A stretch of 64,000 bases of DNA from the NCBI GenBank assembly GCA_046563655.1, contig CM102289.1, positions 4,898,001-4,962,000 on the forward strand, in the 5' to 3' direction. Below are positions 5,320 to 54,016 of the stretch, piece by piece. The position numbers and the translations under genes are program-made. The number at the start of each line of letters is the position of its first letter. The first letter of the stretch is position 1. The notes beneath the pieces are model-generated. The model was not told the origin of the DNA and searched no databases. It saw only the letters and a list, made by a program, of their open reading frames with translations. Source of the stretch: Yuukianura sp. NJ FZ-2021 (taxonomy: Eukaryota).

Positions 5320-6110
5320 AAAAAACCGAAAGTCACATTAAAAATACACGAAGACCCATACAACAAAAGATAAGTCAATTAAAAAAAACCGAAAGTCCCG
5401 TTAAATATACACAAGATCCATCCGTCCTCGCGCCCAATCTACTGCCGTATGTTCTAGCGTTTAGGAAAAAACGAAAGTCCCGTTAAATATACACGAAGAA
5501 CAACTCAACAAAAGATAAGTCAACTAGAAAAAACCGAAAGTCCCATTAATACACAAGATCCATACAACAATAGATAAGTCAATGACTACGCTCGAGATTC
5601 CGGCCTCATTCACTCGAACTGGCGCACACCGGTCTCACCAAGAGAGATTCGCACCCCTCTTTGCCCCGTGCCACCTGAACAGCTACTTGCAAGCCTCATC
5701 CGTCGTCGCGCCCAATCTACTGCCGTATGTTCTAGCGTTCAAGAAAAAAAACCGAAAGTCCCGTTATATATACACGAAGAACAATTCAACAAAAGATAAG
5801 TCAATTAAAAAAAACCGAAAGTCCTGTTAATACACAAGATCCATACAACAATAGATAAGTCAATGACTACGCTCGGGATTCCGGCCTCATTCACTCGAAC
5901 TGGCGCACACCGGTCTCACCAAGAGAGATTCGCACCCCTCTTTGCCCCGTGCCACCTGAACAGCTACTTGCAAGCCTCATCCGTCGTCGCGCCCAATCTA
6001 CTGCCGTATGTTCTAGCGTTTAAGAAAAAAACCGAAAGTCCCGTTAAATATACACGAAGATCAATTCAACAAAAGAAAAGTCAATTAAAAAAAGCCGAAC
6101 GTCCCGTTAA
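5320..6110. repeat. Diverged precursor repeats, including a ~281-bp tandem duplication related to the downstream 588-bp unit
   Basis: ATGACTACGCTCG...GCCCAATCTACTGCCGTATGTT recurs at 5582 and 5863; AAAAAACCGAAAGTC motif is repeated. Confidence 0.85.
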
Positions 6111-6112
6111 CT

Positions 6113-9100
6113 ATAACACTTCTGCTGCGCATTCAAGCAAGAGACACAGGGACTAAGTTTTTTACCACATCCCCGAACCAATGCGGATTGAGACTTTGAA
6201 ACGATCTGTGCATGGACACATTCGCCAAGAAGTGATTCCGTAGGTTTCGGTTGTGGGATTTAGTATGTGTTCCTAAGTGATGGTACAGAGAAGGTTTAGT
6301 CAAAAATTTAAAGTTCATTTTACAATTTTTTGAACCAAAATTACGAAACAAACTCCAGATTTTTTTTATATACACAAAGATCCATACGACAGAGGATTAG
6401 TCAATGACTACGCTCGAGATTCCGGCCCCAGTTCACTCGGACTGGCACACTCCGGACTTACCGAGAGAGATTCACACCCCTCCCTGCCCTGTGTCACCTG
6501 AACAGCTACTCGCAAGCCTCGATCCGTCTTCGCGCCCAATCTACTGCAATGCCGTATGTTCCAGTGTATATGAAAAAAACCGAAAGTCACGTTAAATGTC
6601 AAGTCAAGTTTCGTTAACTCTAATAATAACACTTCTGCTGCGATATGAAAAAAACCGAAAGTCACGTTAAATGTCAAGTCAAGTCTCGTTAACTCAAATA
6701 ATAACACTTCTGCTGCGCATTCAAGCAAGAGACACAGGGACTAAGTTTTTTACCACATCCCCGAACCAATGCGGATTGAGACTTTGAAACGATCTGTGCA
6801 TGGACACATTCGCCAAGAAGTGATTCCGTAGGTTTCGGTTGTGGGATTTAGTATGTGTTCCTAAGTGATGGTACAGAGAAGGTTTAGTCAAAAATTTAAA
6901 GTTCATTTTACAATTTTTTGAACCAAAATTACGAAACAAACTCCAGATTTTTTTTATATACACAAAGATCCATACGACAGAGGATTAGTCAATGACTACG
7001 CTCGAGATTCCGGCCCCAGTTCACTCGGACTGGCACACTCCGGACTTACCGAGAGAGATTCACACCCCTCCCTGCCCTGTGTCACCTGAACAGCTACTCG
7101 CAAGCCTCGATCCGTCTTCGCGCCCAATCTACTGCAATGCCGTATGTTCCAGTGTATATGAAAAAAACCGAAAGTCACGTTAAATGTCAAGTCAAGTCTC
7201 GTTAACTCTAATAATAACACTTCTGCTGCGATATGAAAAAAACCGAAAGTCACGTTAAATGTCAAGTCAAGTCTCGTTAACTCAAATAATAACACTTCTG
7301 CTGCGCATTCAAGCAAGAGACACAGGGACTAAGTTTTTTACCACATCCCCGAACCAATGCGGATTGAGACTTTGAAACGATCTGTGCATGGACACATTCG
7401 CCAAGAAGTGATTCCGTAGGTTTCGGTTGTGGGATTTAGTATGTGTTCCTAAGTGATGGTACAGAGAAGGTTTAGTCAAAAATTTAAAGTTCATTTTACA
7501 ATTTTTTGAACCAAAATTACGAAACAAACTCCAGATTTTTTTTATATACACAAAGATCCATACGACAGAGGATTAGTCAATGACTACGCTCGAGATTCCG
7601 GCCCCAGTTCACTCGGACTGGCACACTCCGGACTTACCGAGAGAGATTCACACCCCTCCCTGCCCTGTGTCACCTGAACAGCTACTCGCAAGCCTCGATC
7701 CGTCTTCGCGCCCAATCTACTGCAATGCCGTATGTTCCAGTGTATATGAAAAAAACCGAAAGTCACGTTAAATGTCAAGTCAAGTCTCGTTAACTCTAAT
7801 AATAACACTTCTGCTGCGATATGAAAAAAACCGAAAGTCACGTTAAATGTCAAGTCAAGTCTCGTTAACTCAAATAATAACACTTCTGCTGCGCATTCAA
7901 GCAAGAGACACAGGGACTAAGTTTTTTACCACATCCCCGAACCAATGCGGATTGAGACTTTGAAACGATCTGTGCATGGACACATTCGCCAAGAAGTGAT
8001 TCCGTAGGTTTCGGTTGTGGGATTTAGTATGTGTTCCTAAGTGATGGTACAGAGAAGGTTTAGTCAAAAATTTAAAGTTCATTTTACAATTTTTTGAACC
8101 AAAATTACGAAACAAACTCCAGATTTTTTTTATATACACAAAGATCCATACGACAGAGGATTAGTCAATGACTACGCTCGAGATTCCGGCCCCAGTTCAC
8201 TCGGACTGGCACACTCCGGACTTACCGAGAGAGATTCACACCCCTCCCTGCCCTGTGTCACCTGAACAGCTACTCGCAAGCCTCGATCCGTCTTCGCGCC
8301 CAATCTACTGCAATGCCGTATGTTCCAGTGTATATGAAAAAAACCGAAAGTCACGTTAAATGTCAAGTCAAGTCTCGTTAACTCTAATAATAACACTTCT
8401 GCTGCGATATGAAAAAAACCGAAAGTCACGTTAAATGTCAAGTCAAGTCTCGTTAACTCAAATAATAACACTTCTGCTGCGCATTCAAGCAAGAGACACA
8501 GGGACTAAGTTTTTTACCACATCCCCGAACCAATGCGGATTGAGACTTTGAAACGATCTGTGCATGGACACATTCGCCAAGAAGTGATTCCGTAGGTTTC
8601 GGTTGTGGGATTTAGTATGTGTTCCTAAGTGATGGTACAGAGAAGGTTTAGTCAAAAATTTAAAGTTCATTTTACAATTTTTTGAACCAAAATTACGAAA
8701 CAAACTCCAGATTTTTTTTATATACACAAAGATCCATACGACAGAGGATTAGTCAATGACTACGCTCGAGATTCCGGCCCCAGTTCACTCGGACTGGCAC
8801 ACTCCGGACTTACCGAGAGAGATTCACACCCCTCCCTGCCCTGTGTCACCTGAACAGCTACTCGCAAGCCTCGATCCGTCTTCGCGCCCAATCTACTGCA
8901 ATGCCGTATGTTCCAGTGTATATGAAAAAAACCGAAAGTCACGTTAAATGTCAAGTCAAGTCTCGTTAACTCTAATAATAACACTTCTGCTGCGATATGA
9001 AAAAAACCGAAAGTCACGTTAAATGTCAAGTCAAGTCTCGTTAACTCAAATAATAACACTTCTGCTGCGCATTCAAGCAAGAGACACAGGGACTAAGTTT

Positions 9101-9893
9101 TTTACCACATCCCCGAACCAATGCGGATTGAGACTTTGAAACGATCTGTGCATGGACACATTCGCCAAGAAGTGATTCCGTAGGTTTCGGTTGTGGGATT
9201 TAGTATGTGTTCCTAAGTGATGGTACAGAGAAGGTTTAGTCAAAAATTTAAAGTTCATTTTACAATTTTTTGAACCAAAATTACGAAACAAACTCCAGAT
9301 TTTTTTTATATACACAAAGATCCATACGACAGAGGATTAGTCAATGACTACGCTCGAGATTCCGGCCCCAGTTCACTCGGACTGGCACACTCCGGACTTA
9401 CCGAGAGAGATTCACACCCCTCCCTGCCCTGTGTCACCTGAACAGCTACTCGCAAGCCTCGATCCGTCTTCGCGCCCAATCTACTGCAATGCCGTATGTT
9501 CCAGTGTATATGAAAAAAACCGAAAGTCACGTTAAATGTCAAGTCAAGTCTCGTTAACTCTAATAATAACACTTCTGCTGCGATATGAAAAAAACCGAAA
9601 GTCACGTTAAATGTTAAGTCAAGTCTCGTTAACTCAAATAATAACACTTCTGCTGCGCATTCAAGCAAGAGACACAGGGACTAAGTTTTTTACCACATCC
9701 CCGAACCAATGCGGATTGAGACTTTGAAACGATCTGTGCATGGACACATTCGCCAAGAAGTGATTCCGTAGGTTTCGGTTGTGGGATTTAGTATGTGTTC
9801 CTAAGTGATGGTACAGAGAAGGTTTAGTCAAAAATTTAAAGTTCAGTTTACTATTTTTAGAACCAAAATTACGAAACAAACTCCAGATTTTTT
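6113..9893. repeat. Tandem array of ~6.4 near-identical 588-bp units, each with an internal ~75-bp duplication
   Basis: Near-identical ORFs recur at exactly 588-bp spacing (6133, 6721, 7309, 7897, 8485, 9073, 9661). Confidence 0.97.
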
Positions 9894-9929
9894 CAGTATT
9901 GCATAATGAATCTGTATAATTTTGTCAAA

Positions 9930-10250: not shown

Positions 10251-10339
10251 GTTTCTAAAATCACACTTCTAATACCAACCGGAAGTGAATGTATCAATTG
10301 TGCTTGATTGGAAATTTAGGTTCTGCTGAGTTTCTGGGA

Positions 10340-11700
10340 ACCGGCAATGTGACATTGGACACCAGAATCGATATAATTGGGAGCGGAATTGCCGGCTTAT
10401 CGACTGGACTTGCCCTGCACAACGCTGGATTTACTCAAGTAAGGATTTACGAACGGGACGATTGTTTTGACCGGAGACAAGGGTATGGACTCACAATGCT
10501 ACAAGGAAATACCGCCCTCAGAAGACTCGGAGTTTATGACAAGGTCAACCAGATTGACACGCCCTCCAGATCTCACTACATCTTCAACTGTCATGGCAGG
10601 CAACATTGTCGGATTCTTCGGAACCAAATTCTGGCCATCACCAACCTCTGACAAGAAGGCCAAGTACAACCTCCATGTCAGCAGACAGAATCTACGCAAA
10701 ATACTGTATGAACAACTGACACTAAAGGCACAAGGAATCGTTCAGTGGAACAAGATGTTGGATTCCATCTTCCAGTTCCAGAAGAGCCTAATAACGGTGA
10801 GGATTCGTGGGAACCTTCCTTTTCGGATGGACATTTTACTAAGGTGCAGTTGGTATTTGGTTGTGATGGGATTAACAGTTTCGTCCGTCGTCAAGCCTTT
10901 CCGGAAGATGACAATCCGCTCAAATATTTGGGAATCCTACTTGTTCTTGGTAATTCAAACATAATCAATTTAGTAAAATCACTATAACGGTAGTAATATA
11001 GAACAAAAGTACAAGCGTGTTTCTTTTTTAGGTATCACTAGGACTGATCACTACCTAAGTCAAGAACGAGTGTTTCAAACTGTGGATGGAAACACAAGAC
11101 TGTTTGCGATGCCATTCTACGGAGATGAAAGCAGACCGCATGAAAATATGATGTGGCAACTGTCATTCCCAGTGGAGGAACAAGAAGCGAAACAATTACC
11201 TACCAACTTAGATCAACTAAAAAGAAGAGTTTTAGAAATGTGTGGAAACTGGCACGATCCGATTCCATCCCTCATCCAGTCAACTAATTTGTCACTGCTC
11301 ATGGGTATCCCTACCTACGACAGAGACCCTCAACCGCCATGTCAAACTTCGAAGTCATTGGTGTTGCTTGGAGATGCTGCTCATCCAATGTCTCCCTTCA
11401 AAGGTCAAGGAGCAAATCAAGCCTTACTGGACGGAGTCTACTTTACAGATTTTTTAAGTCGTGGAGCGAGCATAGATTCCGCTATTCGTAGCTTTGAAAC
11501 TGAAATGTGGAACAGAGTTCGTGTTGGATTCCAGAGAAAGAGCAACAACTTTCCATCACCCGGGCGTCCTCGGAGGTGACTTTTTCCTTTACCGGGGAAT
11601 TGGACAATTCCTCCAAAAGTTAAAAGAAAAAGGAGTCAACAGCAGCAGTGGAGAAGCAATCGATGGCCTAATTATTTCAGAACTCAAAGGCCTCAATCTC
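10340..11700 (+). pseudogene. Class A FAD-dependent monooxygenase, frameshifted
   Basis: IIGSGIAGL (GxGxxG), GCDGINS (DG motif) and LLGDAAHPMSPFKGQGANQA (GD motif) lie in different frames; frameshifts near 10.6, 10.77 and 11.53 kb; one intron ~10950-11031. Confidence 0.8.
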
Positions 11701-19900: not shown

Positions 19901-22900
19901 GGAGAAGCGTTTCCAATTGGTTTGATATTAGCTTTTGGTGGATCCGTGGAATGAGTCTTATCACCCGGAGCTGAAGTGGATTTGGCTGCAATTGTTCCAC
20001 TTGGTCCAGGAACTGAGCCACTCTTGAGCACGAGTTGCTTTTCCAGAACAAGAATCCGTTGCTTCTGCATTTCAATTTCCTTCTTCAGTCCTTCATTCTC
20101 GGTAGCCATTTCTGATGTTCCAGCGACAGCAGGTCCAGGCTGACCACCAGCAGTTCGTAAATCCTTATTCTCAGACTCAATACGACTCAATCGTGCTTCG
20201 TATTGAGATTTGAGAGCTGCTTGACGTACATTGGCTTCTTCCGTGCTGGCTTCCATAGTCGATAGTTTAGTTTTCGTATTCATAAGTTCTTGTTCCTGTT
20301 CCGTTTTTTGTTGTGTGATTGCGGCCACTTTATCTCTCATTGTTTTCAATGCGACTTTGGCTCGCTCGTCTCTCTGTGCAGTGTCCTGCTTGAGAGCTTC
20401 CAAGTCTTTCTGCAGTGCTTCGTTCTGTGAAGAAAGTTCGGCGACTCGACCCTCAAGTTCAGCGATTTGTACTGGAGGAGCAACAGGTTGCTCTGTGCCT
20501 GCAGGAGTGGATGCAGAACCGGGGGCAGTTTCACTGCCAGACGCTGATGTCTCGTTAGCCTTGACGGCATCTTCGAAAGATTTTTTGTACTTTCGCGCCA
20601 AAAGTTTTATCTGCAGTAAAAAGAAAAAAGGAGTTAAAAAAAGTTATTAATTAAACTACACGTACATGTTAAGCTGCATGTAAGTGTTTACTCGTGTTGT
20701 TAAAGTCAAACCTGTTTAACGTATGCCTTTTGCTCTTCGACTTCTTCAGTCAACTGTTTCACAGACTTTTCGCTCCCTTCAAGTTCCGTCACTTTTCCTT
20801 CGAATTGTTTCTTGAGTTCCACCAGTTCCTTTTGAAGTTTCTCTAATTCAGTTGCAAGACCAGTCTTGTAGTCATTGACTCGCTTCAAATCTTCACTCAT
20901 CTTCCGGTTTTGGTCTGTCGAAGACTGAAGAGATACTTGAAGTTGAGTCACCTGACTTTGTGATGCTTTGAGTGCGGAATCCATCCGGACATTTTCAGTG
21001 TACAATTTCTTGCGAATCTCCTCCGTTCCATTCAGTTGTTTCTGCAGGTAGTCCTTCTCAGCTGTCACCTTTTTCATTTCTTCTGGATTGAATTTGTTAT
21101 TTTTCTCAATCAAAGCGTTTGCTCTGGCTCTCCATCGCGCAATGTCCTGTTTCAATCCTGTGTTCTCAGATGTAAGACTTTCCAAATCGCCTTCAAGAGC
21201 TTGGAGGCGGGAGTTGAGTGGTTCGATCGTGGACTCCGTTTCAGCCGTTTTTACTTTCATAGCCTCTAGCTGCTGAACGAGATTCTCTCGCTCTTCCCGC
21301 AGAAGCCTAATCGATAATAAATAATAAGAATTAGTCGTAATGTTAGTAATAACCAGCAATACAACGTATAACGATCGAAGATTTGCAGGCATCATACCTG
21401 TTGCTGTCTGTGAGAGCACTAAGAGTTTCTATTTTTCGCAGTAACTCCGCTGTTTTTGAAGAAGTAATCAACGACGTTTGAGACTGAGACTGTAGCTGGT
21501 TGAATTTCTCTTCCAATTCTTTGTACTGCCTCTCAGCATACTCCATTTGACTCTTGAGTCTTGCTACCGTAGATTCAGAAGCTTCTACTTTGCTATACGA
21601 AATTTCTTTCTGGCGACGCATGTAACGAAGTAGCTGTAACCCGTTAAATCAGACACAATGCTCAACCAACACAAAAATTAAAAAAAAAATATAGTCAAAA
21701 CGTTATTTTTACGTACCTGAACCCAATGCTCAGTTGACCGCGTCTTCTCTTCATCTTCGGCAAATGAAGCATCGGCTACAGAACTGAAAGAAACATCCAT
21801 ATCTGCTCCAGTAGCGCTTAAATCCAAGTTCCTCTTTCCTTCCAATTGGGCAGTAAGTGCCAAGAGTTGATCCTAACGAAGATAATTAAGTACAATTACA
21901 TTTACTTTACATTACTTTACGATTATTCATGAAATGAATGTTAACAGCTGATGATTGATTACCTGTAGAGAGGTATTGAGTGTATCCAATTCTGCCACCG
22001 ACAGAGATAGACGCTGGATTTCTTCCAATAAGCCTTTATCTCTTCCTTCACTTCCAGCTTTCAACTCCTTCAACTCTTCTTCCAGCAAAATCTTATCTCG
22101 AGATACAGTTGCCAACTCATTTCGAACGGAATCCAACTCATTCCTGATTTCATTCCGATTCTCAACAACTGAAGAATGAAAGCCCAACTCGTTTTCAAAT
22201 TTTGTTTGAAATTCTCTTGTTAGTGCTTGCTGCTTCTCAAGATCTGACTTCAGTTTTGAATTTTCTTCCTGTGCTGTCTGAAGCTTGGACGTTATTACTT
22301 GAGCCTCCCGCTCAATACGTTTCAGTTCTGCTGAGCCGGTTTCTGCCTTTTGGTTAATTTCTGCCGTCAGTGCATCTTTGTCTAACTTCAGCTGAGTTGC
22401 TTCTCGTTCAATTGTGTCTAAACGACACTGGAGATCACGAATCATGTCATCCTTGCACCGGAGTTTCTCTTCAGCCATGTTGTCAGTTGAAGCTCCAATC
22501 TGTTCCTCCAGATTCTTCGAAAGAACTTTGTATTCTTCAACACTGGATTTTAACAAAGCAATTTGTTGTTTGGATGTAATCGCTTCACGTTCCAAAGTCG
22601 CAATTTTAGTGTTGAGTTCACGTGTCTGTTGATCCTTTTCCGCTTGTAGCGTCTGAAGGGTTTGCAGCGTAGCAGCAGCATTGCCGTGCCCCGTGAGCAC
22701 CTAAAAGTAAACAAAACAAGATTAAGACAAAATTCCATTCATCTTGTGCATTAGAAGCTTAAGTTTCATAAGTTAGTTTACCTGCACTTGACCCAAAAGC
22801 TTCTCAATTTCAATTCGTTGAGCACGAATCGTTCCAGCAGCAGTTGCCAACTCAGCCTTGACCTTTTCATGACCTTCCACGGCTTCTTTAGCTTTGGCTT

Positions 22901-25843
22901 CCAATTCAGTAGTAACTTTAGTCCAAGAAGTAAAATTAGCCTTGAGCTGTTCTCCTTCTGCCTCTGTCTTTCTTCTCAATAGAACATTTTCGGCCTTGAG
23001 TGACTCCAGTTCAGCTTCCAGTTTAAGCTTGGCAGAACTGGATGCCAATTCCAAATTGTTCCTAATTTCAGCCAAATTAACTTCCAGCATCTTGCACGTT
23101 CTCTCTTCTCGCTTGTACAGTTCCAATTCGGCTTGGAGTCGACTCTTTCCGTCCCTCAGCGAATTTCGTTCAGTTGTGATAGAAGCGAGTGCTACTTCGG
23201 CTCGAGCCAATTTGTCTTGATTGGCCATAACTTCATTTCGGAGTAGCTGCGAAGTCTGTTCATGTTTGGCAACAGTAAGAGATAACTGTTTGTTCTTTTC
23301 CTCCAAAGAAGTAATCGTCTTCTTATAAGTGTCCATATTGGCAGAATAAATCTTGCTACGTTCGTTGTTGTAATCCACTTGCGATGATAGTTTTGCATTG
23401 TCAGAACGAAGTCGACTCAGATCGTCACGCAGTTTCTCCATTTGCTCTGATGCAATTTTTTCATTGGCTCGCATCTCAAATCGATACGTTTCAAAATCCT
23501 GCTTCATTTCGTTGTAACTTGCTTCAAGCTGACTGTACTTGGCTTCGGCTTCAGCTGATGAAACTGAAATCACTTCTCCCGATACTCCAAGCTTCGGTGA
23601 CTGGAGTTGCTTACCAGGACTGGCCAACAGTTGTTGTTGTCTCACTGTTGTTAGAATTGACTCTTGACGAAGCCGCATTTCTTTGAGGTCTTCCAATTCC
23701 TTAAGAACTTCCTCATAAGCAGCCTTGATTTCTTCAACTTGTCGTCCATCAGCTGATTCTGCTGCTTTCTCACGTTCTTCCGACAACTCACGAACAAGCG
23801 ACAAGAGATAAGCATTTTGAGACTGGAGTTCGTCAATGTTTCGGTATGTAACAAGATTTGAAGTGATTAGCGTTGAAGAGTCCAAAACCCCAGACAACTC
23901 CATTGCTTCTCGTTCACGATCTTCATCTTCAGCTGCGTAGGCATAAGTCCCTCGAAGATTTTCAACTTCACGTAGAAGTACTTTAATTTGATTACAATTG
24001 TCAGTCATCTGAGACTTGAGCCGACTGTTTTCTCGTTCTATAGAAGAAAGGCTTTTACGAGTAAATGCATATTCGTCGCGAATTTTAGCTTCACTGTCCA
24101 TTGATATTTCGAGTTGATTTGTAAGAGCATCAATAGTTTCTAAGCAGCGGACATAGTCTTCTTTCTGTGCCTTTATCAATGGACCTCTGATGGCAATGTC
24201 ATTCACAATGTTCGCAAGTTCGTCACGCAATCCAGCATTTTCAGCCTGAAGTGTAAGAAGGTCTTCTTGAGCCGTAGTCAGTTTGGAGTAAATTTCAGTT
24301 AGACTGTGAGTTCCACGTAAGAGATTACTCACAGCAGCGGCCGCTGGACTTAAACTTTCAATCATTTCATCCGTGAGGCCTTTTTCTTTGAGATGTTTCA
24401 GGAGTTCGTTGGCTTGTTTTAATTCTGTTTCCAAAGTGGCAATCTTTGCATCTCGAGAAGCAACTTCTTCTTGATAGGATTTCCCAGAATTGGCAAAGTT
24501 TGTTTCCAATTCGCCGTAACGGTCAGTAGCTATAGATAGAAGGCTCTGTAAGTTAGAAACAGCTGATTCCAACTCTTTGATTTTCTTAAGTGAGTCATCG
24601 ATATCTTCTTTGTACAAATTGGCAAGCTTAGCCTGAGTTTGAAGTTCAACTCGGTAGTTCTCTTCTATTTTGAGTTCCATTTCCTGGGATTCCCGAAGTT
24701 TTTGAAGGAGACGTTCGATCTGGCTCTCTTGATTAGCATTTAGAGCCCTTGCATTGACTAAAGACAACTCCGCTTGACGCAACTAAACGATAGGTTCAAA
24801 GAAATCATGAAAACATCACGCTGAGCAGTAAAAACCGCACTGATAGTTGGTAAATGTGTTTCACCTCTTCACTTTTTTGAGCCAGTTCTGCCTGGGTAGA
24901 TAAAAGGTTGGTAGTGTGATCACGTTGCATTTCAACGATTTGCGAGTTCTTTCGATCTAACTCAGTGTTCAACAGTTGCACTTGCTTGTTTACCCACTCC
25001 CGCTCCTTTTCCAATTCCTTTTCCCTGATATTTTTGTTATGTTATTCTCATTGAGTGTAATGCTTGTAATATTATGAGTTACCTGTAGTCCAGATCAATT
25101 TTCTGTGAAGTCATTTCATCGACTTTGAACAAAGCTGTAACTTTTGCTCCAGTAGCTGAGTGGAGTTGGTCTGAAAGCGATTTCTTCTCGTCAGTTAGGT
25201 CTTCAACTTCCTTAATCCTTCGTTCCAAAATATTTACCAAGCCTTCCTTCTCAGCTGCTAGAGTCTGAAGTTTGAGAGAAGCTTCGTTGAAGCTGGCTTG
25301 AATACTATATAAGAAACAGCGGTTATAACAATAGTTTCAGGAAAGGTTAGCAGCAAAAACCAAGCTAAGAACTCTCAAAATGTATTACTACTTCTACTTA
25401 CTTTTGAAGGTTTGCCTCCAGTTGATTAATTGTGGTAAGAGAGCATCGGTACTTTTCAACGTACTCCTCAGAAGTTTTCCTTTCCTTATTGAGTTGATCA
25501 TTGGCTGTATTGGATGCATCTCGAACTTCCTTCAATTGTGTTTCTAGAGTTCGAACTTGTGCTTCTGCAAAAGGATAAGAATTAAAATGCAACTGAGATA
25601 GGTGAGGTAGTGAGGTAGGTTACCGACTCTTAACACAGTGTACTCACCGTGTGCAATTCTGTCCTTCTGTTTCTGATTTATGTAACCATGTACCTTCCTG
25701 GTCAGTTCTTCAAAATTTACAGCAACTTTTGTCCTGATAGCGTCCGGAATTTCATTCCGTTCATCAGCCGTCAGAAATGAAAGCACATGGACGTGTAGTG
25801 GATCTACCACATCTTGATCCATCTCCCCACCTTGTCCTAGCAT
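16906..25843 (-). CDS. Tpr: Nucleoprotein TPR / Megator, multi-exon
   Basis: Long coiled coil with [31 protein letters not shown] and [10 protein letters not shown]; acidic region; [27 protein letters not shown]; Arg/Gly-rich tail. Confidence 0.95.
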
Positions 25844-34620: not shown

Positions 34621-36346
34621 TTAGTTAGTCTTGCCAGGTTCGCCAATTTTGTATTTGTCATATAATTCGACTATGTCGTTCACAAGCGACCTCATCATGA
34701 CCTCGGAATGAAATGGTGTTGGAGTGATTCTTAGTTTTTCTTGACCTCTGGGCACAGTTGGGAAGTTGATGCCAGGGACGTAGTGCCCCTTGACTTGGAT
34801 CAACTCCGCCGCAATTTTGAAACACAGAGCAGGATTTCCTACCTAAAATATTAACGAAAAAAATTTACTCTAAAACTATTTAGTGCCTAAAATTGGAGTA
34901 AAATACAGATAGTGTTTAAAAATAACGCATGTGCGCTCCTCACAATAACAGGAATGATGTGAGAATCGTTTTGTTCCAGCGGCAACCCAGCACTCGTCAA
35001 CAACTTTTTCAAAAATTTGACATTCCGGTGCAATTTTTGCCGCAACAGAACGCCTTCTTCGGATCTGATAACGCTGAGTGACATCAATGCACCAGCGAGT
35101 GCCATTGGTGAAATGGACGTCGTAAAAACAAATCCGGGCGCGTAACTTCGAATTGTATCGATCAGAGATTGGCTTCCAGCCAAGTACGCTCCAGCAGTCC
35201 CTAACGCCTTGGCTACAGACAAAATCATTTTAATTTTCTTTTAATTAGTTCCAAAAAATTCGCAATTTTTTAAGCCTTACCTAAACTACCAGCTATGAGA
35301 TCCATATTTTGAGTAGCGTCAACCAGTTGGCCAATTCCCGCTCCACTTTTCCCGTAAAGTCCAACTGCGTGCACTTCGTCGACAAATGTAAGAGCACCAT
35401 GCTGCTTTGCAACTGCGCACAACTCTGCGACATCCGCCTTCTCTCCAGTCATTGAGCAGAGGCTTTCGAAAACAACAATTTTGGGCCGACTGAGGTCGGA
35501 TTGACTGAGAAGTTGAGCTAAGTGTGAGGCGTCGCCATTTTTAAAAACATGTTTTGGCGCTCGACTGCTGATTATTCCTTGTAAAATAGATGCGTGGTTT
35601 TCAGAAGCCGAATAAATTTCCACGCCTGAAAGCAAATTAAAGTTTCAAAAGTCATTTTTAAAAATAGTTTTCATTTTTCAAAAACGAACCTGGAATTATT
35701 TTGCCAAGGAGGGAAATTGCCGAAGAATTTGACAAAAATCCAGAAGACGAGATGAAGGATGCTTCTTTCCCGTGAAAATCCGCTAATTCACGCTCCAGCG
35801 TCAAGTGCAGCTCTGATGTGCCACAAATTCCACGAGCTCCAGCCGACCCTACGCCATAGAGGTCAATGGCCTTACTAGAATAAATAAAAATTTTGTTCCT
35901 TTTTTTCTCCTGAGTGTTCAAAAAAAAAATTAACCTTACTGCACTGCCTGTGTCACTTTCGGGTGTCGGCTCATTCCCAGCACATCATTGGCACACCATA
36001 CAGTGATGCGCTTTTTCTTTGCCAATCCTCCGTTTTCAATGATTTCGTCGGCTTCAGGGAATGCCGACGCATCGCGATTCACGACGTTGAAAACTCGGTA
36101 AATATTCGCATCTTTCCGTTCTTGAATTTTCCTTCGCATGAATTCTTCATAGTCAAATCCCTCGTTTCCTTTCTTCGTACGGCAAAACCTGACACCTAAG
36201 ACGACAACAAAAAACGTTCAATAATTTCGGTATTTCTTTCTTTTGATTGTGTTTTGTTTATTTTGAATTATATTGGAAAGTAGGTAGGTTTAGACTAAAT
36301 TACTTGTTTCCGTACCTGCTCCTTTCAGACGCCGAAGCAATTTCAT
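34621..36346 (-). CDS. Divergent ALAS-type PLP-dependent alpha-oxoamine synthase (candidate BioF-like activity), 6 exons
   Basis: [67 protein letters not shown] (PLP Lys)..[23 protein letters not shown]. Confidence 0.9.
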
Positions 36347-36573
36347 AGTAAGGGCAGTTGCAGAGCGTGGTAAATCACTGAAGGTTGGAAACCTTTGCTG
36401 CAAGGTCAAAGGTCAAAAACCTCGTACGACACTCATCACCTTTAGTAAAAACATTGGCTGTGTGCTGGTGATCTTTGTCTGCTAGTAAAAAAAATCATTC
36501 AACTTCACTCAATTGTCATCTCCCCTCAACTTTTTATCTTAAGCGATTGCGAGAGGGAGACTCTTCGTTCCAT

Positions 36574-36618
36574 CTATTCACTTCGTGTTGCGTACATCGA
36601 GATACACGAAGTGAATAG
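36574..36618. promoter_or_regulatory. 15-bp perfect inverted repeat in the divergent promoter between the ALAS-like gene and bioD
   Basis: CTATTCACTTCGTGT-N15-ACACGAAGTGAATAG. Confidence 0.45.
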
Positions 36619-36720
36619 TTTTTAAGATTATACAATTTTAAACAAACCATAAATTATTTTTTCGAAATTATTCTTAAAGTTTCTCAAAAACTCTGGACTG
36701 TTTAGACAACCATTAAAAAC

Positions 36721-37410
36721 ATGGTTTTGATTTTTCAGAGACTTCTCACCCAAAAAATTTTAAATGTACCAAAAACACAAAATCCAGTAACAAAAATTTT
36801 TGTAACAGGAACAGATACTGACATTGGGAAAACTGTTGTTTCGAGTTGGCTCTGCCTCCATTCTCGCTTTGACTACTGGAAACCAATCTCCAGTGGATCC
36901 GATGACCTTTCGACCTCAGATTCAATGTTAGTCAAAAGTCTTGCAAAGGTCAAAGTTCATCCCGAAGTTTATACTTTTCGTCAGCCACTGTCACCACACT
37001 TGGCAGCACAAAGAGACAACGCTATAATCAGTTTAGAACAAATCAGCCTGCCGCAGAGTGAGCAACTGATTGTAGAGGGTGCTGGTGGCGTTTTGGTTCC
37101 CTTGAATAAGGATGACCTTGTGATTGACCTCATCAAGAAACTTGACCTTCCAGTGCTCCTAGTCGCCAGTTCGAAACTCGGAACCATCAATCACACACTT
37201 CTTAGCATCGAGGCGCTGAGTTCCCGTGGCATTCCAGTGCTTGGGGTCATTGTCAAGGGGAGTCCAAATCAAGACAACTGTGATGCCATTGCACATTACG
37301 GTCAAACTCAAGTTTTGGCGCAAGTGCCACATTTTGAAAACGTGACTACGGAACATCTTCAAAATTTACGCTTGACCCCAATTCTAAAAGAACTGCTTTG
37401 TTTAATTTAA
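36721..37410 (+). CDS. bioD: Dethiobiotin synthetase, intronless, bacterial type
   Basis: KIFVTGTDTDIGKT P-loop, KPISSG, LSPHLAA, VEGAGG, LGTINHTLL. Confidence 0.96.
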   Translation: MVLIFQRLLTQKILNVPKTQNPVTKIFVTGTDTDIGKTVVSSWLCLHSRFDYWKPISSGSDDLSTSDSMLVKSLAKVKVHPEVYTFRQPLSPHLAAQRDNAIISLEQISLPQSEQLIVEGAGGVLVPLNKDDLVIDLIKKLDLPVLLVASSKLGTINHTLLSIEALSSRGIPVLGVIVKGSPNQDNCDAIAHYGQTQVLAQVPHFENVTTEHLQNLRLTPILKELLCLI

Positions 37411-37473
37411 AAAACAAAGTTTTTTATTTTCTGAATTCAAAAATTTCCGAAATTCAAAATCAAAAAGTCACTA

Positions 37474-37487
37474 TTTATTGAAATAAA
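37474..37487. terminator. Back-to-back poly(A) signals for convergent bioD and bioB
   Basis: TTTATT (AATAAA on minus, 37474-37479) next to AATAAA (plus, 37482-37487) in the 195-bp gap between the stops. Confidence 0.5.
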
Positions 37488-37605
37488 AATGGCAGTGGTG
37501 ACAAGTAATCGCAGAATTGGGTTTTAGTTGGTTTAGAATTAATTTTGTAATTCTTTTGTAAAGTTGTAATTCTTTTAACTATAATAATTTTTGTACTTGT
37601 GTTTG

Positions 37606-38577
37606 TTATTGGTTCATCGCTACTTGTACTTCAGTTGTTCGGAGAGGTTCTTTTTCAAATCCCAATTTGGTGAATAAAATGTCATCTTTTTCCGGACTTG
37701 GATTCGGCGCAGTGAGTAACTTTTCTCCATAAAAGATTGAATTCGCTCCAACTAGAAAACAGAGTAGCTGCATTTCCTGACTCATACTTTCCCGCCCTGC
37801 TGACAACCGAACGTACGACGTCGGCATCATAATCCTCGCTAAAGCAATTGTTCTAACAAAGTCCATTGAATCCACTTCCGGGGAATTCTCCAATGGCGTT
37901 CCAGGGATGCGCATCAACTTGTTGATCGGAATTGATTCGGGTGGAGTCGGAAGACTAGCCAAAGTCAGCAGCATTTTGATTCTATCGTCATTCGTTTCTC
38001 CCATTCCCAGAATTCCGCCACAACAAACCTTGAGGTCAGCTGACCTCACATGCTCCAGCGTGCGAATGCGGTCTTCAAAAGTGCGTGTGGTGATGACCTC
38101 CTTGTAGTAATCCGGGGACGTGTCAATGTTGTGGTTGTAAAAATCTAGACCAGCGTCCTTGAGCGCCTTGGCTTGAGCTTCATTTCGAAGTAGTCCCAGA
38201 GTAGCACAAGTTTCGAGTCCAAGGGCCTTGACCTCTCTGACCATTTCTGAAATGGTGTTGATTTGTCTGTCGGTGGGTCCACGCCATGCTGCTCCCATGC
38301 AAAACCGAGTACTTCCTGCAGCTTTGGCTGCTTTAGCGGCCTTTATGACATCCTCTAGAGCCATGACTGGTTGTTTCTGAAGTCCCGTTTTGTAACGAGC
38401 AGACTGCGGGCAGTAAGAACAGTTTTCTGGACAACTGCCCGTTTTGACGCTGAGTAGCGTACTGACTTGGATCAGTGTCGGACTGAAGTGCTGCCGATGA
38501 GCCACTTGTGCTTCGTAAACCAATTCGGCCATTGGCAAATTAAAAATTTGCTTTGCACGGTTCAGTGTCCAGGCCAT
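37606..38577 (-). CDS. bioB: Biotin synthase (radical SAM), intronless CDS, bacterial type
   Basis: [15 protein letters not shown] (CxxxCxxC), [38 protein letters not shown]. Confidence 0.98.
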
Positions 38578-39945
38578 GGCTCCAATCTTAGATTTGAAAG
38601 TCCTAAAGGCATAAAAAGGTTGCAGTAGTATAGTAGTCTTTAAAACGCCTGAAAATCAGGTAACCCACCTACGTTCGTTCTGTAAAGATGATGAAAAGTT
38701 TTGAAAAAAAAATTCTCAAACCAAGAATGATTTAAAAGTAATAATTTCATAATTTATAAGTTCTTAAACCTAAAAAAAGCTGCAGAACCACAGAATTTAA
38801 AGCGTCTCCAACATGCTTGAAAATCAGGCACTAGTGTACTTCCAAACACGTTATAAAATTTTGAGAAAAAAACATTTTAAACAAAAGCAAATAACTCACC
38901 TTTATAGGAATTTGGAGCTAACTAAAATCAGCTGCCGAAATTGCTGTGCTCTCGTGTTATTTGATGCTCGTGTAGCAACAAAGTGGTTTGGATGATAAAG
39001 GCAAAGTGGGTTAATCATATAGAGTTTGCATGGTTCTGACATGATCGTCTGATGCCCCTAAATACTACAATCCATTTGAACTTATCGCTTCAAAAACAAT
39101 TAACGCTATCAATAAAATAAAATTTAATAAAAAGAAATGAGAAAGTATATTAAGACGAAACTCTCACCCATTCGACTGTTTAGCTTTACGGAAAATGACA
39201 TCGACGTAAAAAGTAGATTATATAATTGATGTTATATATTAAATATATATTAAAAATATTAAATTATATAATTAATACTATACAGTAAGGTACATATGTA
39301 AATGTTATACACGAGAAAAGGCTTCTTGAATAGCGACTCACAGTTTTGTCGGCGCAATTTTTGAGATTTTTTCGAATAATTCTGTTGACCAAGACCACTG
39401 AGCCTGTTAGGGGTCTCATGAGGTTACATCATCAATAGATTCACCAGGCCCTTTGGTCCAAGGTTGCTATAGCGCCCATTTATACGAATGCTCTAACAGG
39501 TTACGCCATAATTCCGATTTTTTTGAAAAAAAAAACTTTCAGACCAATTTTGCGCCAACTTTGTTCATTTTCACAAGAAAGGACAGTTTCGATTATTAGG
39601 GTGAACTGGGCCCAAAAAATAGGGTGAAGGACTACTTACAACATAACAAAATTTTCACAATTCATCAATAGATCAATCATAGGCTTAGCAAGTAAGGACC
39701 AAAATTTCGCGATGTTGTAAGTAGTCCTTGCATTTGAAATTGCTTGAAATGGACATTCACTTTTGGCACTTTTTTTCTAAACAAAGTTCGACTTTCTCTA
39801 AAAATCCTGAAGAAATGCCTTAGCAACAGTTGTCGCTTGACAGCTTGTTTACAGTTTTTTGGTTTTGTAACTTGAAAAATCAAAATTTTTGTTTTTGGAG
39901 AAGTGTAGAACCCAGAATGCTTTGCATTCTTCCCTTCCCAGGGTG

Positions 39946-47891: not shown

Positions 47892-50800
47892 ATGAGGAGT
47901 GAGAAACATTGGATGAATGTAGTTGTCACTCTTGTGTTTGTATTGGCCAGTGAGGTCAACAGCGGCCAAGCCTTGGCAGGTTTTGATCCGCAGCGTCATC
48001 ACTTGTTGCTCTTGAGTACAGACGACCAGGAGCACTCCAGAGTCAAACGATCATTGGAAATTGAAGATGATGTTGACCTGGGAGAAATTGAAGACGAAGT
48101 TGTAAGAAATTTTTTTGGAACTGTGTATTTTTGAAAAAACGACGTTTTGTTTTCATTTCGAAAATTATTTTTAGGAACATGACTTTTACAATGAAACGGC
48201 CAAAATCTACTCATGTCATGTTTCTACAGACATTCGATACCGATATGCTAGAACACAAGTGACGTCGCGCGTCATCAACAAAAATCGCAGATTTCCTTCC
48301 GAAGTGATTTTTACCATGGTCCTACCAGAAGCAGCTTTCATTTCAAAGTTCCTAATGTAAGGTTTGAAAATCCGAGACCCAAATCTCTATGAAAATTAGT
48401 CAAAAAAGGAATTTTACTGGGAATTTTGAAAAATAGGGAAGTTGATGGAAAGGTATATAACGCCCATGTCAAAACAAAAGAAGAAGCGAAAGACGTTTAC
48501 GTCGACGCCCAGAATCGAGGTCAGGGTGCAGGATTGGTCGAAGTGAAGTGAGCAGGAAATAATAATTCAAAATTCCGTCAAGACGAATGCCTTCTAAGTT
48601 TGGTTTTATTTCAAATTTTAGCGCTCGACATGCAAACGTTTTCAATGTCAACTTGAATGTAAAACCAAATTCAAAAGTTACGTTTAATTTGACGTACGAA
48701 GAATTTCTCATTCGGAAACTCGGATTTTACGAACAAATAGTGCACATTCGTCCGGAACAGGTAACCACACTCTCAAAAAACAACAATTCAAACTTTATTC
48801 ATTTTTACTTTGTAGATTGCAGAAATTGAAGATTTTAAAATCTCAGTACGGATACTGGAATCACAAAATATCACAAGAATCCAAGTTCCAAATCTCGTCA
48901 CAAATGAAATCTTGGCATTTGAAGGTTATTCTTTTAAATGCTTTTTTAAGTTTACAACAAGTTTATACATTGCGTATTTTTTGGAAATTTTAAACAGAAG
49001 AAACTAATGTAAATGTCAACATTAGTCAACCTAGTGGAAACTACGCAATTGTCAACTGGAGACCGTCAAGAGCAGATCAGGAGTTGATGGTCAGAGATAC
49101 TGGAATCAAATTCGTTGTGCGTTATGACATTCATCATGATTCTGGCGCAGGAGAAATTTTGGTAAAATTTGAAACCTAAAAGTTCGAAAAAGAAAATTCT
49201 GCGAATTTCGATACCCGATTTTTTTTGCTTCAGTTAATGAACGGCTACTTTGTTCACTTCTTTGCCCCCTCTGATGTGCTACCAATGAGAAAACATGTGG
49301 TTTATGTCCTTGACGTGTCAGGGTCAATGTCTGGACGAAAAATCCAGCAAATGAAGCATGTCATGAGTACTGTCATGGATGACCTCAAACCAGACGACTA
49401 CTTCAACATCATTTTCTTTTCGTCAGAGTCAAAGGTAGTAAGAATTACACTCAAAGAAAACAATCCAAGGTCAAAGGTCAAATCAAACTAATTTGATTTA
49501 GGTGGTGATGCCAGCAAAATCCGCTGCTTTTGCTGAACCAATCATGGCTACTGAACTTGCTCTGCGTGAAGCTCATCAACTGCTGGCCTCACTTACTGCT
49601 CATGGTGGAACAAATATTGACGCAGCATTGAGAGATGCTTTGGCCATCACTTCTCGTGTTAAACCGACACCACAAAAAGAGGGTATTGGAACGCTTCCAG
49701 AAAATGTGGAGTCGTTGATCTTGTTTCTGACGGACGGTGATCCAACTGTCGGCGTCACGCGACCAGAAGCGATTATTTCAAACGCCAAACAAAGGAATTC
49801 TGCTAAAGTTCCGATTTATGCCATTTCGTTTGGGTTAGAACCCGATTTTGGTTTTCTCAAAAAACTTTCTCTTGAAAACTTCGGTTTTGCTCGAAAGATT
49901 TACGAAGGGGTAGACGCCGACGTGCAGATCCGTGGATTCTACAAAGAAATTTCCTCTCCACTGTTGTCAAACATCACGTTCAAGTACACAACAAATTCCA
50001 GTGTTGCAAGCGTTCGGAGGTTAACCAAACAGAATTTCCCAAGTATTTTTACGGGATCGGAAATTGTGGTTGCCGGGTACGTTCGTGACAGAAAACTGCC
50101 AAATAGTACTGCGCCTGCGCCGCTACCTCCAGCCTTCATGAGCGTCGATATTGATGCAAACGGGAGAAATGGCCGTGTGACCTTGACGGGCAATGACTTA
50201 ACGCGAAACGCGTATGACCTTATGCCTTTACGAAATAACAGTGTGACCTCTTCCCTGGCGGAAATGGAAGATGAATTTCTGGAACGATTATGGGCTTACA
50301 TCACCATCAAGCAATTGCTTGAAATTCATCCAAACCAAAATGGAACTGACGATGACGACTACATTTATGAAGATTTTGGAGAGGAGGGGCTAGAAGAATT
50401 AGAAGAAAATGAACCAATCAATGAGCTGGAGCCAAGACCGATTCCATTAGTGTCGGCTCCTCAGAACATTACAACGGCACGAGATCGTGCTCTGAATTTA
50501 GCTTTGAAGGTAAACAACACAATAAAATTAGATTCTCTCTAAATAAATATTTTGAACAAACTTTTTTATATTTTTAAGTTTTAAATTTGCCTTTTCTATG
50601 CAGTACGGTTTCGTCACTCCAATCACGTCCCTCGTTGTTGTAAAGCCAGAAGAACCGAAATTTGTCATGGACTCGAAAGGAGTCAGAGATCACAGGGCAG
50701 AGGTCACCGATGTCATCAATTTGAAAGAGGCGTCTGCGCAGATTCGTGGTCCACTGCCTCCTACTAGGGGCAACCGGATGATGCCAGCACCAAATTGGCC

Positions 50801-51997: not shown

Positions 51998-54016
51998 TCA
52001 ATTTTGTTGTTCGCGTTCCTTCATGACGACATAGAAGTCTGGAGGCTCCAAACTGTCTAAGATTGGAACTGGCGTCGTGTTGGGCATTGGTCTTGATGGG
52101 TCAGCTCTTACGTCAAAATTTTGAAAAATTGTTGTCAAAAAAAGAAAAATTTGATCTCGTGCCATTGGTTCGCCAATGCACGAGCGCCTTCCAGTAGAAA
52201 ATGCAACAATCCGATCCTTTAGTTGTATCTGCCCTTCGGCATCAATGAAACGTTCCGGGCGAAAGTTTTCTGGATCGCCCCATACTTGTGGATCATGGTG
52301 TACAAAATACTGGTTGGCCACAATGGCTGTTCCTTTGGGAAGGTCATGACCTTCAAAAGTCGTATCTTCCGTAGCTTCATGGAATCCTCCAAGCGGACTA
52401 AACGATGACATGCGCAGAGTTTCACAAATAAAGGCTTCGGTGAAAACCATCCTTATAGAACAAAAAATTGGGTAAACTTTTTTTGGAATTTTTTTTTAAA
52501 TTTAGGTTTACTTTGGCTTGTCTGCGAGGGAAGGATGTCGACTTTTTCCCACGACTCGGTCAATTTCATCCTGCAGTTTTTGCTGCACATCCAAGTTGAG
52601 GATGAGGTAGAGTATGGCCCACACTAAACTCATTGACGTTGGAACAGATCCGGCCATAAACAAGTCAAATACAAGTACAGCCAAATTTTTGTCTGAAAAA
52701 GATTAATTAAAAATTTTGAAAAATTAAATTTTGAAGTGAAAGCTAGAGTATATGATTTTTTTTTAAATCAATAATAGTTTACATCCTACGTCGCCAAAAA
52801 ATGAAGAATTCGGATCTTTGGTATTTTTAATTTCGGCTAAATATCCGTCGATGAAATCGCGTGGATGAAGTTCTTTATCCGTGTTGAACTCTTTTTTATG
52901 TTGATCCACTTCTGGTTTAATGAAATTGAAACTGCCTTGAATTGCTCCTTGAAATCTGTTCCAACCACTCAGATTTGGAAACAATTTGGCAAGCTTTGGT
53001 GCAAAGAAAATCAATATTGGATTTGCTCCTCGAGTTGAGCTGAGAAAGTTTAAATTTCATTTTGAGTATACTCTTTTGGTTAAAAATGTTGACAAAATTA
53101 ATTTAAAAATCTTACACAAAAAGTTGTTCGTACAAAGCGTTTAGTTTAGGATCGTCTTGTTTAAAACGTTTTCCAGCAATCATTCGCCAGAGGGCGTTGA
53201 GTGTTGCTAAAATAAATTTACGATTGAGTGTAACTGGATTTCCGTTTTGCAGTTTTATCCAGTCCACAAATTCTGCCACTTCTTCACCAATCATTTCCTC
53301 CATCAAGTTTCTTCCAAATCCAAAATCCTTCAAGTGTCGAACAGTGAAACGACGCTGCTCTTGCCACTGTTGACCCGAGGTCAAGTTGATTCCTCAAAAA
53401 GTAGCAAATGATGCTATTGTAAATACACTCAGAGGTGAAAAAAAAATCCCGTATGTTTAATCACCATAAAAGCCGTCCTCAAACATCCACATCTCCACCA
53501 TTGGCCTTCCACTTAAATTTGGGTGGTTGAATGCCTTTTTGATCAAATCCAAATCTGACAGAACGATATGCCTAATAAAAAATTAATTCTTTTAACTTGG
53601 TAGAAACAAAAATTTTTCTTTGAAGAAGAAAAAGAAAAAAGAAAAAAAAATCAGGATTTCGAACAATTTGTGACTCGAGAACCGTAAATTTTTTTACCGT
53701 TTGTTGCAAATGTACATTTGGTACATTTTTCCATACTTCCTTGCCCATTTTCCAACTGTCAAGTGAGGAAACTGTCCCATGGACAAAATATTACCAAAAA
53801 TTGGCAAAGCAAACGGACCTGTACATAAGGAAAGTTTTGAAACATCAAAAAACAAATTTTTCTACACTTTGAATGCTTTCTTCAATGAAATAAAGAAACA
53901 TAAATCAAATTTTTTTCACCATCGATATGTCTTGATGCGGATTTTCTGTGAAAGAAACCAAGCCAGACGAAAGAAAAGAAACAAATCAAAAGTGCAACAA
54001 TGAGCAGGGAAATCAT
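51998..54016 (-). CDS. Cytochrome P450, CYP2 clan, multi-exon
   Basis: N-terminal TM, WQEQRRF, ETLR, PERF, FSTGRRSCIG. Confidence 0.95.

Follow-up and report, generated by a model that had tools for sequence, protein, structure and literature searches.

Why should an animal-type contig carry, within about 4 kb, two bacterial-type biotin genes and an intron-containing gene of the 5-aminolevulinate synthase (ALAS) family, and what could the product of the latter do there? Animals are textbook biotin auxotrophs. The question is raised by a 64-kb stretch of genomic DNA (contig CM102289.1, positions 4,898,001 to 4,962,000; hereafter the window), in which a cluster at positions 34621-38577 consists of an ALAS-type gene, bioD and bioB. 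Our answer, which we read from the sequence and hold with about as much belief as doubt, is that this would be a biotin cluster whose ALAS-derived enzyme has been recruited to the BioF step, probably in a springtail. The cluster is made up of the following parts:

34621..36346, minus strand: ALAS-derived alpha-oxoamine synthase gene, six-exon model of 435 amino acids; best NCBIfam match TIGR01821, exon by exon
36347..36720: divergent intergenic region of 374 bp between the ALAS-type gene and bioD, defined by the coordinates; the head-to-head layout is also found in contig L059
36721..37410, plus strand: bioD (dethiobiotin synthase), intronless; TIGR00347 and PF13500
37411..37605: convergent spacer of 195 bp between the bioD and bioB stops, from the sequence
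37606..38577, minus strand: bioB (biotin synthase), intronless; TIGR00433 and a CxxxCxxC motif

A preliminary description of this DNA had reported three packed genes with spacers of 374 and 195 bp, and both distances were exact on recount: 374 bases (36347-36720) separate the start codons of the ALAS-type gene and bioD, which lie head-to-head, and 195 bases (37411-37605) separate the stop codons of the convergent bioD and bioB. The intron-containing ALAS-type enzyme that it had placed opposite bioD also stood, with a spliced frame that is open across five introns. The 374-bp region is a putative bidirectional promoter for the ALAS-type gene and bioD, and contains a perfect inverted repeat, with arms of 15 nt around a 15-nt spacer (36574-36588 / 36604-36618). 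This repeat, which was not found in the corresponding intergenic region of L059, may represent a regulator site or the remnant of a transposon. The 195-bp spacer is AT-rich, and both of its strands show AATAAA-like words. Upstream of the bioB start (38578-38950), a GTGAGT word is followed about 250 bp later by TTTACAG and TTTTCAG words, which may delimit a candidate intron in the 5' untranslated region.

Once spliced, the model of the ALAS-type gene is 1308 nt long and free of internal stops, which gives 435 codons and a stop codon; its five GT..AG introns measure 120, 65, 64, 68, and 101 nt. Residue numbers are those of the R. capsulatus ALAS (2bwn), transferred through printed alignments or ungapped offsets, and the pyridoxal phosphate (PLP) enzyme core is distributed over the exons as follows:

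36316..36346, minus strand: exon 1 (model, predicted), the start and 10 Lys/Arg-rich codons; donor GTACGG
35940..36195, minus strand: exon 2, N-terminal core; arginine of the YRxF motif kept, tyrosine of the NDYLG motif replaced by Val (alignment)
35690..35874, minus strand: exon 3, glycine-rich loop with G81A, T83A, N85G and S87C (ungapped offset to 2bwn)
35281..35625, minus strand: exon 4, PLP-binding core; H142, S189, D214 and H217 kept, D138A, H163N and N164G changed (alignment to 2bwn)
34944..35212, minus strand: exon 5, starting at the catalytic Lys248 (AKALG); T278 kept, G255A and P281S changed (alignment to 2bwn)
34621..34842, minus strand: exon 6 with the stop codon; Thr365 and Arg374 kept, Gln359 changed to Pro (ungapped offset to 2bwn)

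The start ATG at 36346 is a prediction, and the next in-frame Met is at 36139; the predicted N-terminal 30 residues include eight Lys/Arg and four Asp/Glu. Across the five open reading frame (ORF) pieces at 34621-36139 (minus strand), TIGR01821, the ALAS model, scored above the bioF, KBL and serine palmitoyltransferase models in each piece, with 58.1, 66.7, 148.4, 93.3, and 51.8 bits, a rough sum of pieces of 418 against a cut-off of 338.55. Membership of the BioF family (TIGR00858) failed, as its exon-wise scores of 15.2, 43.2, 87.5, 63.5, and 23.0 bits lie below those of TIGR01821 in every exon and add up roughly to 232 against a cut-off of 426.45. The protein shows 28-40% identity (tblastn pieces) to three bacterial BioF or BioF-like proteins. 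Together with the tree placement given below, the exon-wise scores bear out the earlier assignment of this enzyme to the ALAS lineage and not to that of BioF.

Nine named animal ALAS compared with the window by tblastn gave matches confined to 34639-36181. The conserved core starts at about residue 25 of the predicted protein versus residue 80-165 in these nine proteins, and the animal ALAS presequence region PF09029 gave no match on the exon ORFs. A longer canonical ALAS gene enclosing bioD and bioB in one of its introns was also considered, and tblastn with the nine animal ALAS found nothing upstream of 36181; such presequences are poorly conserved and may go unmatched. In an exon-4 search of 1.84 billion representative proteins, no family of close relatives was found: identity did not exceed 63%, and there was a single real orthologue, P0135. 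The best 120 longer proteins were 53-63% identical, and the named ones among them are animal ALAS spread over many phyla without preference for any group, while canonical insect ALAS exons are 74-85% identical in the same region to named insect, mite or mollusc ALAS.

To what extent the enzyme could still be an ordinary ALAS was judged on an alignment of 133 ALAS, 102 eukaryote-type sequences of at least 430 amino acids (18 of 120 were shorter and were dropped) and 31 alphaproteobacterial ones. Of the 96 columns with a conservation of at least 97% across these 133 ALAS, the window protein deviates at 17; the median ALAS deviates at none, and the five worst at 3, 4, 7, 7, and 12. The residues kept are K248, H142, S189, D214, H217, T278, T365, R374 and the YRxF arginine. 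The last corresponds to Arg21 of R. capsulatus, and K248, H142, S189, D214, H217, T278 and R374 are PLP-binding or catalytic residues of the family. The changed residues include the NDYLG tyrosine (Y56V), G81A, T83A, N85G, S87C, D138A, H163N, N164G, T245S, G255A, P281S and Q359P, among others. The NDYLG tyrosine (alignment column 603) is Tyr in all 133 ALAS and Val in the window protein. The glycine-rich loop G81-G82-T83-R84-N85-I86 is altered in the window protein; G81 occurs in 133 of 133 ALAS and N85 in 132 of 133, and their counterparts here are Ala and Gly. The residue at position 85 is Leu in BioF. At position 83, the members of the superfamily compare as follows:

ALAS, substrate glycine: Thr in 133 of 133
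KBL, substrate glycine: Val in 5 of 5
BioF, substrate alanine: Ser in 7 of 7, and in 3 of 3 BioF-like proteins
ALAS-type protein of the window: Ala

In published work, the equivalent of Thr83 is described as Thr in all ALAS and as responsible for amino-acid selectivity, and a serine-using ALAS homologue, AlmA, has Ser at that position, where the change S82T cuts the activity with serine to 0.3% (PMC9356726). Likewise, Thr83 is reported to hold the carboxyl of succinyl-CoA in position and to direct the specificity for the amino acid (PMC4525017), and Thr365 to contact the succinyl-CoA carboxylate in a bacterial structure (PMC13674496). Users of glycine thus carry a beta-branched residue at position 83, the alanine user a small one, and the window protein one that is smaller still, so that T83A would make space for an amino-acid substrate with a side chain. 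The retained Thr365 is consistent with an acyl-CoA that, like pimeloyl-CoA, still has a terminal carboxylate. Since 17 of 96 conserved columns are changed, Thr83 among them, the ALAS-type protein is much too diverged for a normal ALAS.

The single orthologue, P0135, is a gene call on a genomic contig that reads through an in-frame intron exactly at the exon 4/5 junction. Its contig, L059, is an independent metagenome contig of 7029 bp which matches exons 2-6, with the exon breaks 3/4, 4/5 and 5/6 at the same places as in the window. Identical codons account for 275 of 393 aligned ones (70%), and the numbers of nonsynonymous (pN) and synonymous (pS) differences per site are 0.19 and 0.83, the latter saturated. 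Low pN with saturated pS means strong constraint over a long time, and the ALAS-type gene is under purifying selection. The orthologue deviates, as does the window protein, at 17 of the 96 conserved columns; 15 of these coincide, 12 of them with the same residue, and the glycine-rich loop of 13 residues is identical in both, including Ala83.

Head-to-head with the orthologue, upstream of it and on the other strand, L059 contains the first 57 codons of bioD, which are cut by the contig end. The tblastn match of this fragment is 52% over 29 residues, P-loop included, and among 18,950 NCBIfam models TIGR00347 was its sole match (E 0.0011). The loss of linkage with the bio genes in related species had been named beforehand as a finding that would speak against the recruitment; instead, the pairing of the ALAS-type gene with bioD is conserved in a second species, as far as the short L059 contig shows. 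Beyond these two genes, L059 shows no similarity to the window. The second intron of L059 is about 2.5 kb long and holds an ORF piece of a calcineurin-like metallophosphoesterase on the strand opposite to the gene (1417-1865, minus strand); its counterpart in the window measures 65 nt, and the 64 kb contain no such phosphoesterase gene.

The origin of the ALAS-type gene was addressed with two trees. In the first, of 58 rows (the window protein, 36 eukaryote-type ALAS, 18 alphaproteobacterial ALAS and three oxoamine synthase outgroups), the window protein falls inside the eukaryote-type ALAS clade, with an SH-like approximate likelihood ratio (SH-aLRT) support of 100, and its terminal branch measures 2.54, compared with a median of 0.32. 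In the second, the window and L059 proteins form a clade (100) with a stem of 1.72 within the eukaryote-type ALAS clade (100), and the placement of the pair at the base of that clade was not settled. In the approximately unbiased (AU) test, the grouping of the pair with 14 named arthropod ALAS was not rejected (p 0.20). Scores with phmmer reached a maximum of 466 and a median of 415 bits to the 102 eukaryote-type ALAS, and 394 and 362 bits to the 31 alphaproteobacterial ones. ALAS was present in 44 of 61 alphaproteobacterial genomes sampled, as well as in both metagenome-assembled genomes (MAGs) whose BioD is nearest to that of the window; the ALAS of these two MAGs score 348 and 346 bits, which places them with the bacterial ALAS least similar to the window protein. 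The window protein also shares a single-residue insertion of animal type.

The gene structure also bears on its origin, with five introns in the ALAS-type gene versus none in the coding sequences of bioD and bioB. The window gene, L059 and four canonical arthropod-type ALAS genomic ORFs have in common a phase-1 intron that splits the codon preceding the catalytic lysine. In these ORFs (P0383, P0385, P0402 and P0363) the ALAS sequence ends right after GTLG and is followed by K or R, which corresponds to the read-through of a G|GTAAG or G|GTAGG donor and places a phase-1 intron there. Host origin is favoured by this shared intron, by the five introns versus none, by the higher scores to eukaryote-type ALAS and by the absence of affinity to the ALAS of the MAGs related in BioD, and we regard it as likely that the ALAS-type gene is host-derived. 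Of the duplicated host haem enzyme that had been proposed at the outset, the host part is thus consistent with an intron shared with arthropods, while the trees leave the origin open (AU p 0.36 for a placement outside the group of eukaryote ALAS and their nearest bacterial sister).

Both bio genes are uninterrupted ORFs. That of bioD encodes 229 amino acids which match TIGR00347 with 133.7 bits (cut-off 83.3) and PF13500 with 198.6 bits, and the P-loop GTDTDIGKT is present in the translation. Residues 27-178 align to positions 1-165 of the TIGR00347 profile, which leaves about 26 extra N-terminal residues before the profile start, and the L059 fragment has about 29. Both animal BioDs begin with MVL, and this basic extension of 26-29 residues (window 36721-36798; L059 173-87, minus strand) may be a targeting peptide gained after transfer. 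In the collection of species-representative genomes, BioD had only two relatives, in a Candidatus Jidaibacter MAG (55%) and a Midichloriaceae MAG (54%). In the former (L001 1474-4450), rodA, bioD and bioA follow one another in this order, with stop and start codons that overlap, and a BioF-like gene (408 bits, just below the cut-off) and an ALAS gene lie on other contigs.

The bioB gene encodes 323 amino acids which match TIGR00433 with 397.4 bits (cut-off 225), PF04055 (Radical_SAM) and PF06968 (BATS), and CPENCSYC is present in the translation. Residues 2-308 align to profile positions 2-307, without an N-terminal extension. BioB relatives were taken as the best 120 of 8000 scored, and the nearest among the matches listed is P0001, a Logan-derived protein with 80-81% identity; a protein of the scale insect Parthenolecanium corni is 69% identical, and many bacterial BioB, including those of Wolbachia and Mesenet, are 68-72% identical. 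In a FastTree phylogeny of the 120 BioB and the window sequence, the latter pairs with P0001 (support 99) within a clade of nine rows that includes the P. corni BioB (support 95). An alphaproteobacterial genome (L039) has a BioB 57% identical to that of the window, in the same short locus as a BioF above the cut-off. The bioD and bioB genes are true members of their families, closest to Rickettsiales-type bacteria. Because their nearest relatives are bacterial, they are embedded among host genes and their GC content is host-like, they are best read as genes transferred from bacterium to animal, and the horizontal acquisition first proposed for them agrees with bacterial-type genes inside an animal contig.

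The GC content is 0.43 for bioD, 0.48 for bioB and 0.47 for the coding sequence of the ALAS-type gene, and 0.42-0.46 for host ORFs; the third-position GC of bioD and bioB also equals that of host ORFs. Animal-type genes, recognized by family matches of ORF pieces, flank the cluster on both sides:

2649-3777: Ist1
10289-11576: kynurenine-monooxygenase-like FAD protein
21930-25041: nucleoprotein TPR
49180-50539: Shisa domain, and VWA
52001-53393: cytochrome P450
55605-57361, minus strand: two HSP20 genes

The closest named relatives of Ist1 are from springtails, with 54% identity to Allacma fusca (over 86% of the query) and 52% to Orchesella dallaii; identity to O. cincta is 76% over 38% of the query, and two further sequences show 75%. 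On the basis of this one gene, the host is probably a springtail, which moves the locus away from the hemipteran cases (whitefly and mealybug) with which it had been compared. A nematode, rotifer or hemipteran host, to which the style of the introns and the BioB matches seemed to point, was rejected in view of Ist1. The tandem HSP20 genes have ORFs of 275-292 residues, each with a long tail beyond the crystallin domain. At 6136-9924 lies a satellite-like array of 588-bp period, in which the same pair of minus-strand ORF-like frames recurs six to seven times; it has a 75-bp sub-repeat in each unit and gave no Pfam match; a 281-bp repeat of 2.5 copies precedes it (5419-6110).

The function we propose would have arisen from both sources. 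The genes bioD and bioB, from Rickettsiales-like bacteria, would take diaminopelargonate to dethiobiotin and then to biotin. The ALAS-type gene would most likely be a duplicate of a host gene which went through fast evolution and then came under purifying selection. Its enzyme would keep the PLP chemistry of the alpha-oxoamine synthases, with the threonine that restricts it to glycine lost and the glycine-rich loop lying against the acyl-CoA rebuilt. It would condense a dicarboxylic acyl-CoA, for which pimeloyl-CoA is the likeliest candidate, with an amino acid that bears a side chain, L-alanine being the likeliest, to give 8-amino-7-oxononanoate (KAPA), the product of the BioF step. The ALAS-type gene and bioD would be transcribed divergently from the 374-bp region, probably under common regulation, and bioA and a normal ALAS would exist elsewhere in the genome. 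Recruitment to the BioF step is suggested by the conserved pairing with bioD, the preserved PLP machinery, the removal of the glycine gate, the rebuilt loop and the purifying selection, and also because this step is the sole oxoamine synthase reaction in biotin synthesis and neither transferred gene covers it. A wider claim is that a springtail lineage makes its own biotin, independently of symbionts, with bioD, bioB and bioA or a substitute from Rickettsiales-like bacteria, an ALAS duplicate as KAPA synthase and one bidirectional promoter; this we advance only tentatively and think rather doubtful in full.

Several observations weigh against the proposed recruitment. No bioA was found in the 64-kb window by tblastn, and BioA is needed between BioF and BioD, so that a complete or symbiont-independent pathway, first suggested for this locus as a possibility, is more than the window shows. 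The protein is not a BioF by sequence, with the rough sum of about 232 bits far from the cut-off, and its derived residues are not BioF-like, being Ala and not Ser at position 83, and Gly and not Leu at position 85. Moreover, six of the 12 changes shared with L059 (Y56V, F to S, D138A, H163N, N164G and T245S) fall on positions that show conservation in BioF and BioF-like proteins of the sample as well, so the chemistry may exceed a simple switch from ALAS to 8-amino-7-oxononanoate synthase, or PLP binding may be weakened. As to the host origin, the AU test did not reject a placement of the pair outside the group formed by the eukaryote ALAS and their nearest bacterial sister (p 0.36), and at 10 columns that discriminate animal from bacterial ALAS the window protein is animal-like at four and bacteria-like at four. 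The bioD evidence of L059 consists of 57 codons at a contig end, neighbouring genes can stay adjacent without a functional tie, and the BioF activity itself we infer purely from sequence. Of the idea that the enzyme was recruited as the missing BioF, the supported part is an altered ALAS linked to bioD which has lost the glycine-selecting Thr83; its new residues are not those of BioF.

These objections lend themselves to a different reading, in which the gene is an ALAS paralogue with a new function apart from biotin, such as the synthesis of another aminoketone, and its adjacency to bioD is a persisting historical accident, for example of foreign DNA landing nearby. The changes at positions conserved across all sampled oxoamine synthases suggest a chemistry unlike that of the known family members, the new loop residues and the lack of bioA within the window agree with it, and ALAS homologues altered at residue 83 are described as making other products, namely AlmA with serine and a cyclising ALAS (PMC9356726, PMC4525017). 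However, an accident accounts poorly for a head-to-head pairing with bioD that was kept while synonymous sites became saturated and all other similarity between the contigs was lost, nor does it explain why the gene should belong to the one family that provides a biotin step, BioF, uncovered by either transferred gene; we consider this reading possible but unlikely. A more conservative view is that the gene encodes the haem 5-aminolevulinate synthase of the animal, perhaps its sole one, which evolves fast and had the bio genes inserted alongside by chance. Its best family matches are indeed ALAS, it keeps every PLP and catalytic residue along with Arg374, Thr365 and the YRxF arginine, and the basic predicted N-terminus could be a short mitochondrial signal. 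Even so, we judge it improbable: Thr83, Gly81 and Asn85, which are invariant or nearly so in 133 ALAS, are all replaced in both species, the identity of 53-63% to any ALAS in the exon-4 region compares with 74-85% among canonical insect ALAS, and the model lacks a long N-terminal region and has no PF09029 match.

If the gene were instead an alphaproteobacterial hemA that was transferred with the bio genes and gained five introns later, the presence of ALAS in 44 of 61 alphaproteobacterial genomes and in both MAGs nearest in BioD, the AU p of 0.36, the bacteria-like state at four of 10 columns and a length as short as that of bacterial ALAS would be readily understood. That origin is quite improbable in our view, given the position within the eukaryote-type clade in the best trees (SH-aLRT 100), the higher scores and identity to animal ALAS, with the ALAS of the Midichloriaceae-type MAGs at only 348 and 346 bits, the shared animal-type single-residue insertion, and the five introns versus none in bioD and bioB, one of them common to arthropod ALAS in position and phase. 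Finally, many changes at conserved sites might point to a decaying gene or to an artefact of assembly or contamination, but a frame of 435 codons is open across five canonical introns, pN/pS to the orthologue is far below 1 with the derived residues conserved, animal genes lie on both flanks in DNA of uniform base composition, and the independent contig L059 shows the same pairing of bioD with the ALAS-type gene, which makes this explanation extremely unlikely.

The recruitment of an ALAS duplicate to the BioF step can be set against several known systems. The enzyme resembles ALAS (TIGR01821; 2bwn, 5qqq, 5txr) in its lineage and fold family, in the PLP lysine, His142, Asp214, His217, Ser189, Thr365 and Arg374, and in one intron; it differs by the 17 of 96 conserved columns changed (including Thr83, Asn85, Gly81 and the NDYLG tyrosine), by the absence of a long presequence and by a branch about eight times the median. 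With BioF (TIGR00858) it shares the superfamily, the presumed type of reaction and a linkage to bio genes as in bacterial operons; its residue at position 83 is small and not beta-branched, as in BioF, but a different one. The identity of 28-40%, the score below the family cut-off and Ala/Gly versus Ser/Leu at positions 83 and 85 set it apart. AlmA and the cyclising ALAS of actinomycetes are likewise ALAS homologues re-specified through the threonine at residue 83 and a neighbouring loop residue (PMC9356726; PMC4525017), but they belong to bacterial secondary metabolism, have Ser at that position and still use succinyl-CoA; the window protein is animal-encoded, has Ala there, carries many further changes and is linked to bio genes.

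Transfers of biotin genes into animals are described for bioA, bioD and bioB in mealybugs, scale insects and whiteflies and for bioB in Heterodera, with the earlier biotin steps of the hemipteran cases ascribed to symbionts (PMC10158165; PMC5664097). The present locus is like the hemipteran transfers in having bacterial late-step bio genes in an arthropod genome, flanked by host genes and with Rickettsiales-type relatives, and unlike them in its springtail-like host and in the probably host-derived oxoamine synthase linked to the transferred genes. No such linked oxoamine synthase was found in the accessible parts of the hemipteran literature, and our literature search found no report of springtail bio genes, nor of a linkage between biotin genes and an ALAS-derived enzyme in an animal. 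Two supplementary files of the Folsomia paper contain no mention of biotin genes, and the searchable supplements of the Orchesella paper mention biotin for carboxylases only. A precedent for combining transfer, duplication and clustering comes from Saccharomyces cerevisiae, in which the biotin pathway was reportedly rebuilt by transfer (BIO3, BIO4), duplication and neofunctionalisation (BIO6, BIO1) and clustering (PMC7187267 citing Hall and Dietrich 2007); that case concerns a fungus, and the parents recruited there were BIO3 and YJR154W, not an ALAS.

The exceptions to biotin auxotrophy in animals are, to our knowledge, sap-feeding hemipterans with transferred late-step genes and symbionts for the remainder of the pathway. 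With a host that is probably a springtail, the locus would extend such transfers to a lineage of free-living soil hexapods, and it adds to them a conserved and selected ALAS-derived enzyme tied to the transferred bio genes. Should this enzyme prove to be a KAPA synthase, an animal would offer a clear natural example of how one specificity among the alpha-oxoamine synthases gives rise to another, through a gate residue that mutagenesis has already pinpointed in bacteria. The locus would then also be an animal counterpart of the yeast route to vitamin prototrophy by transfer, duplication and clustering, and it would bear on the vitamin supply of soil arthropods and on the integration of transferred genes into the metabolism of their hosts.

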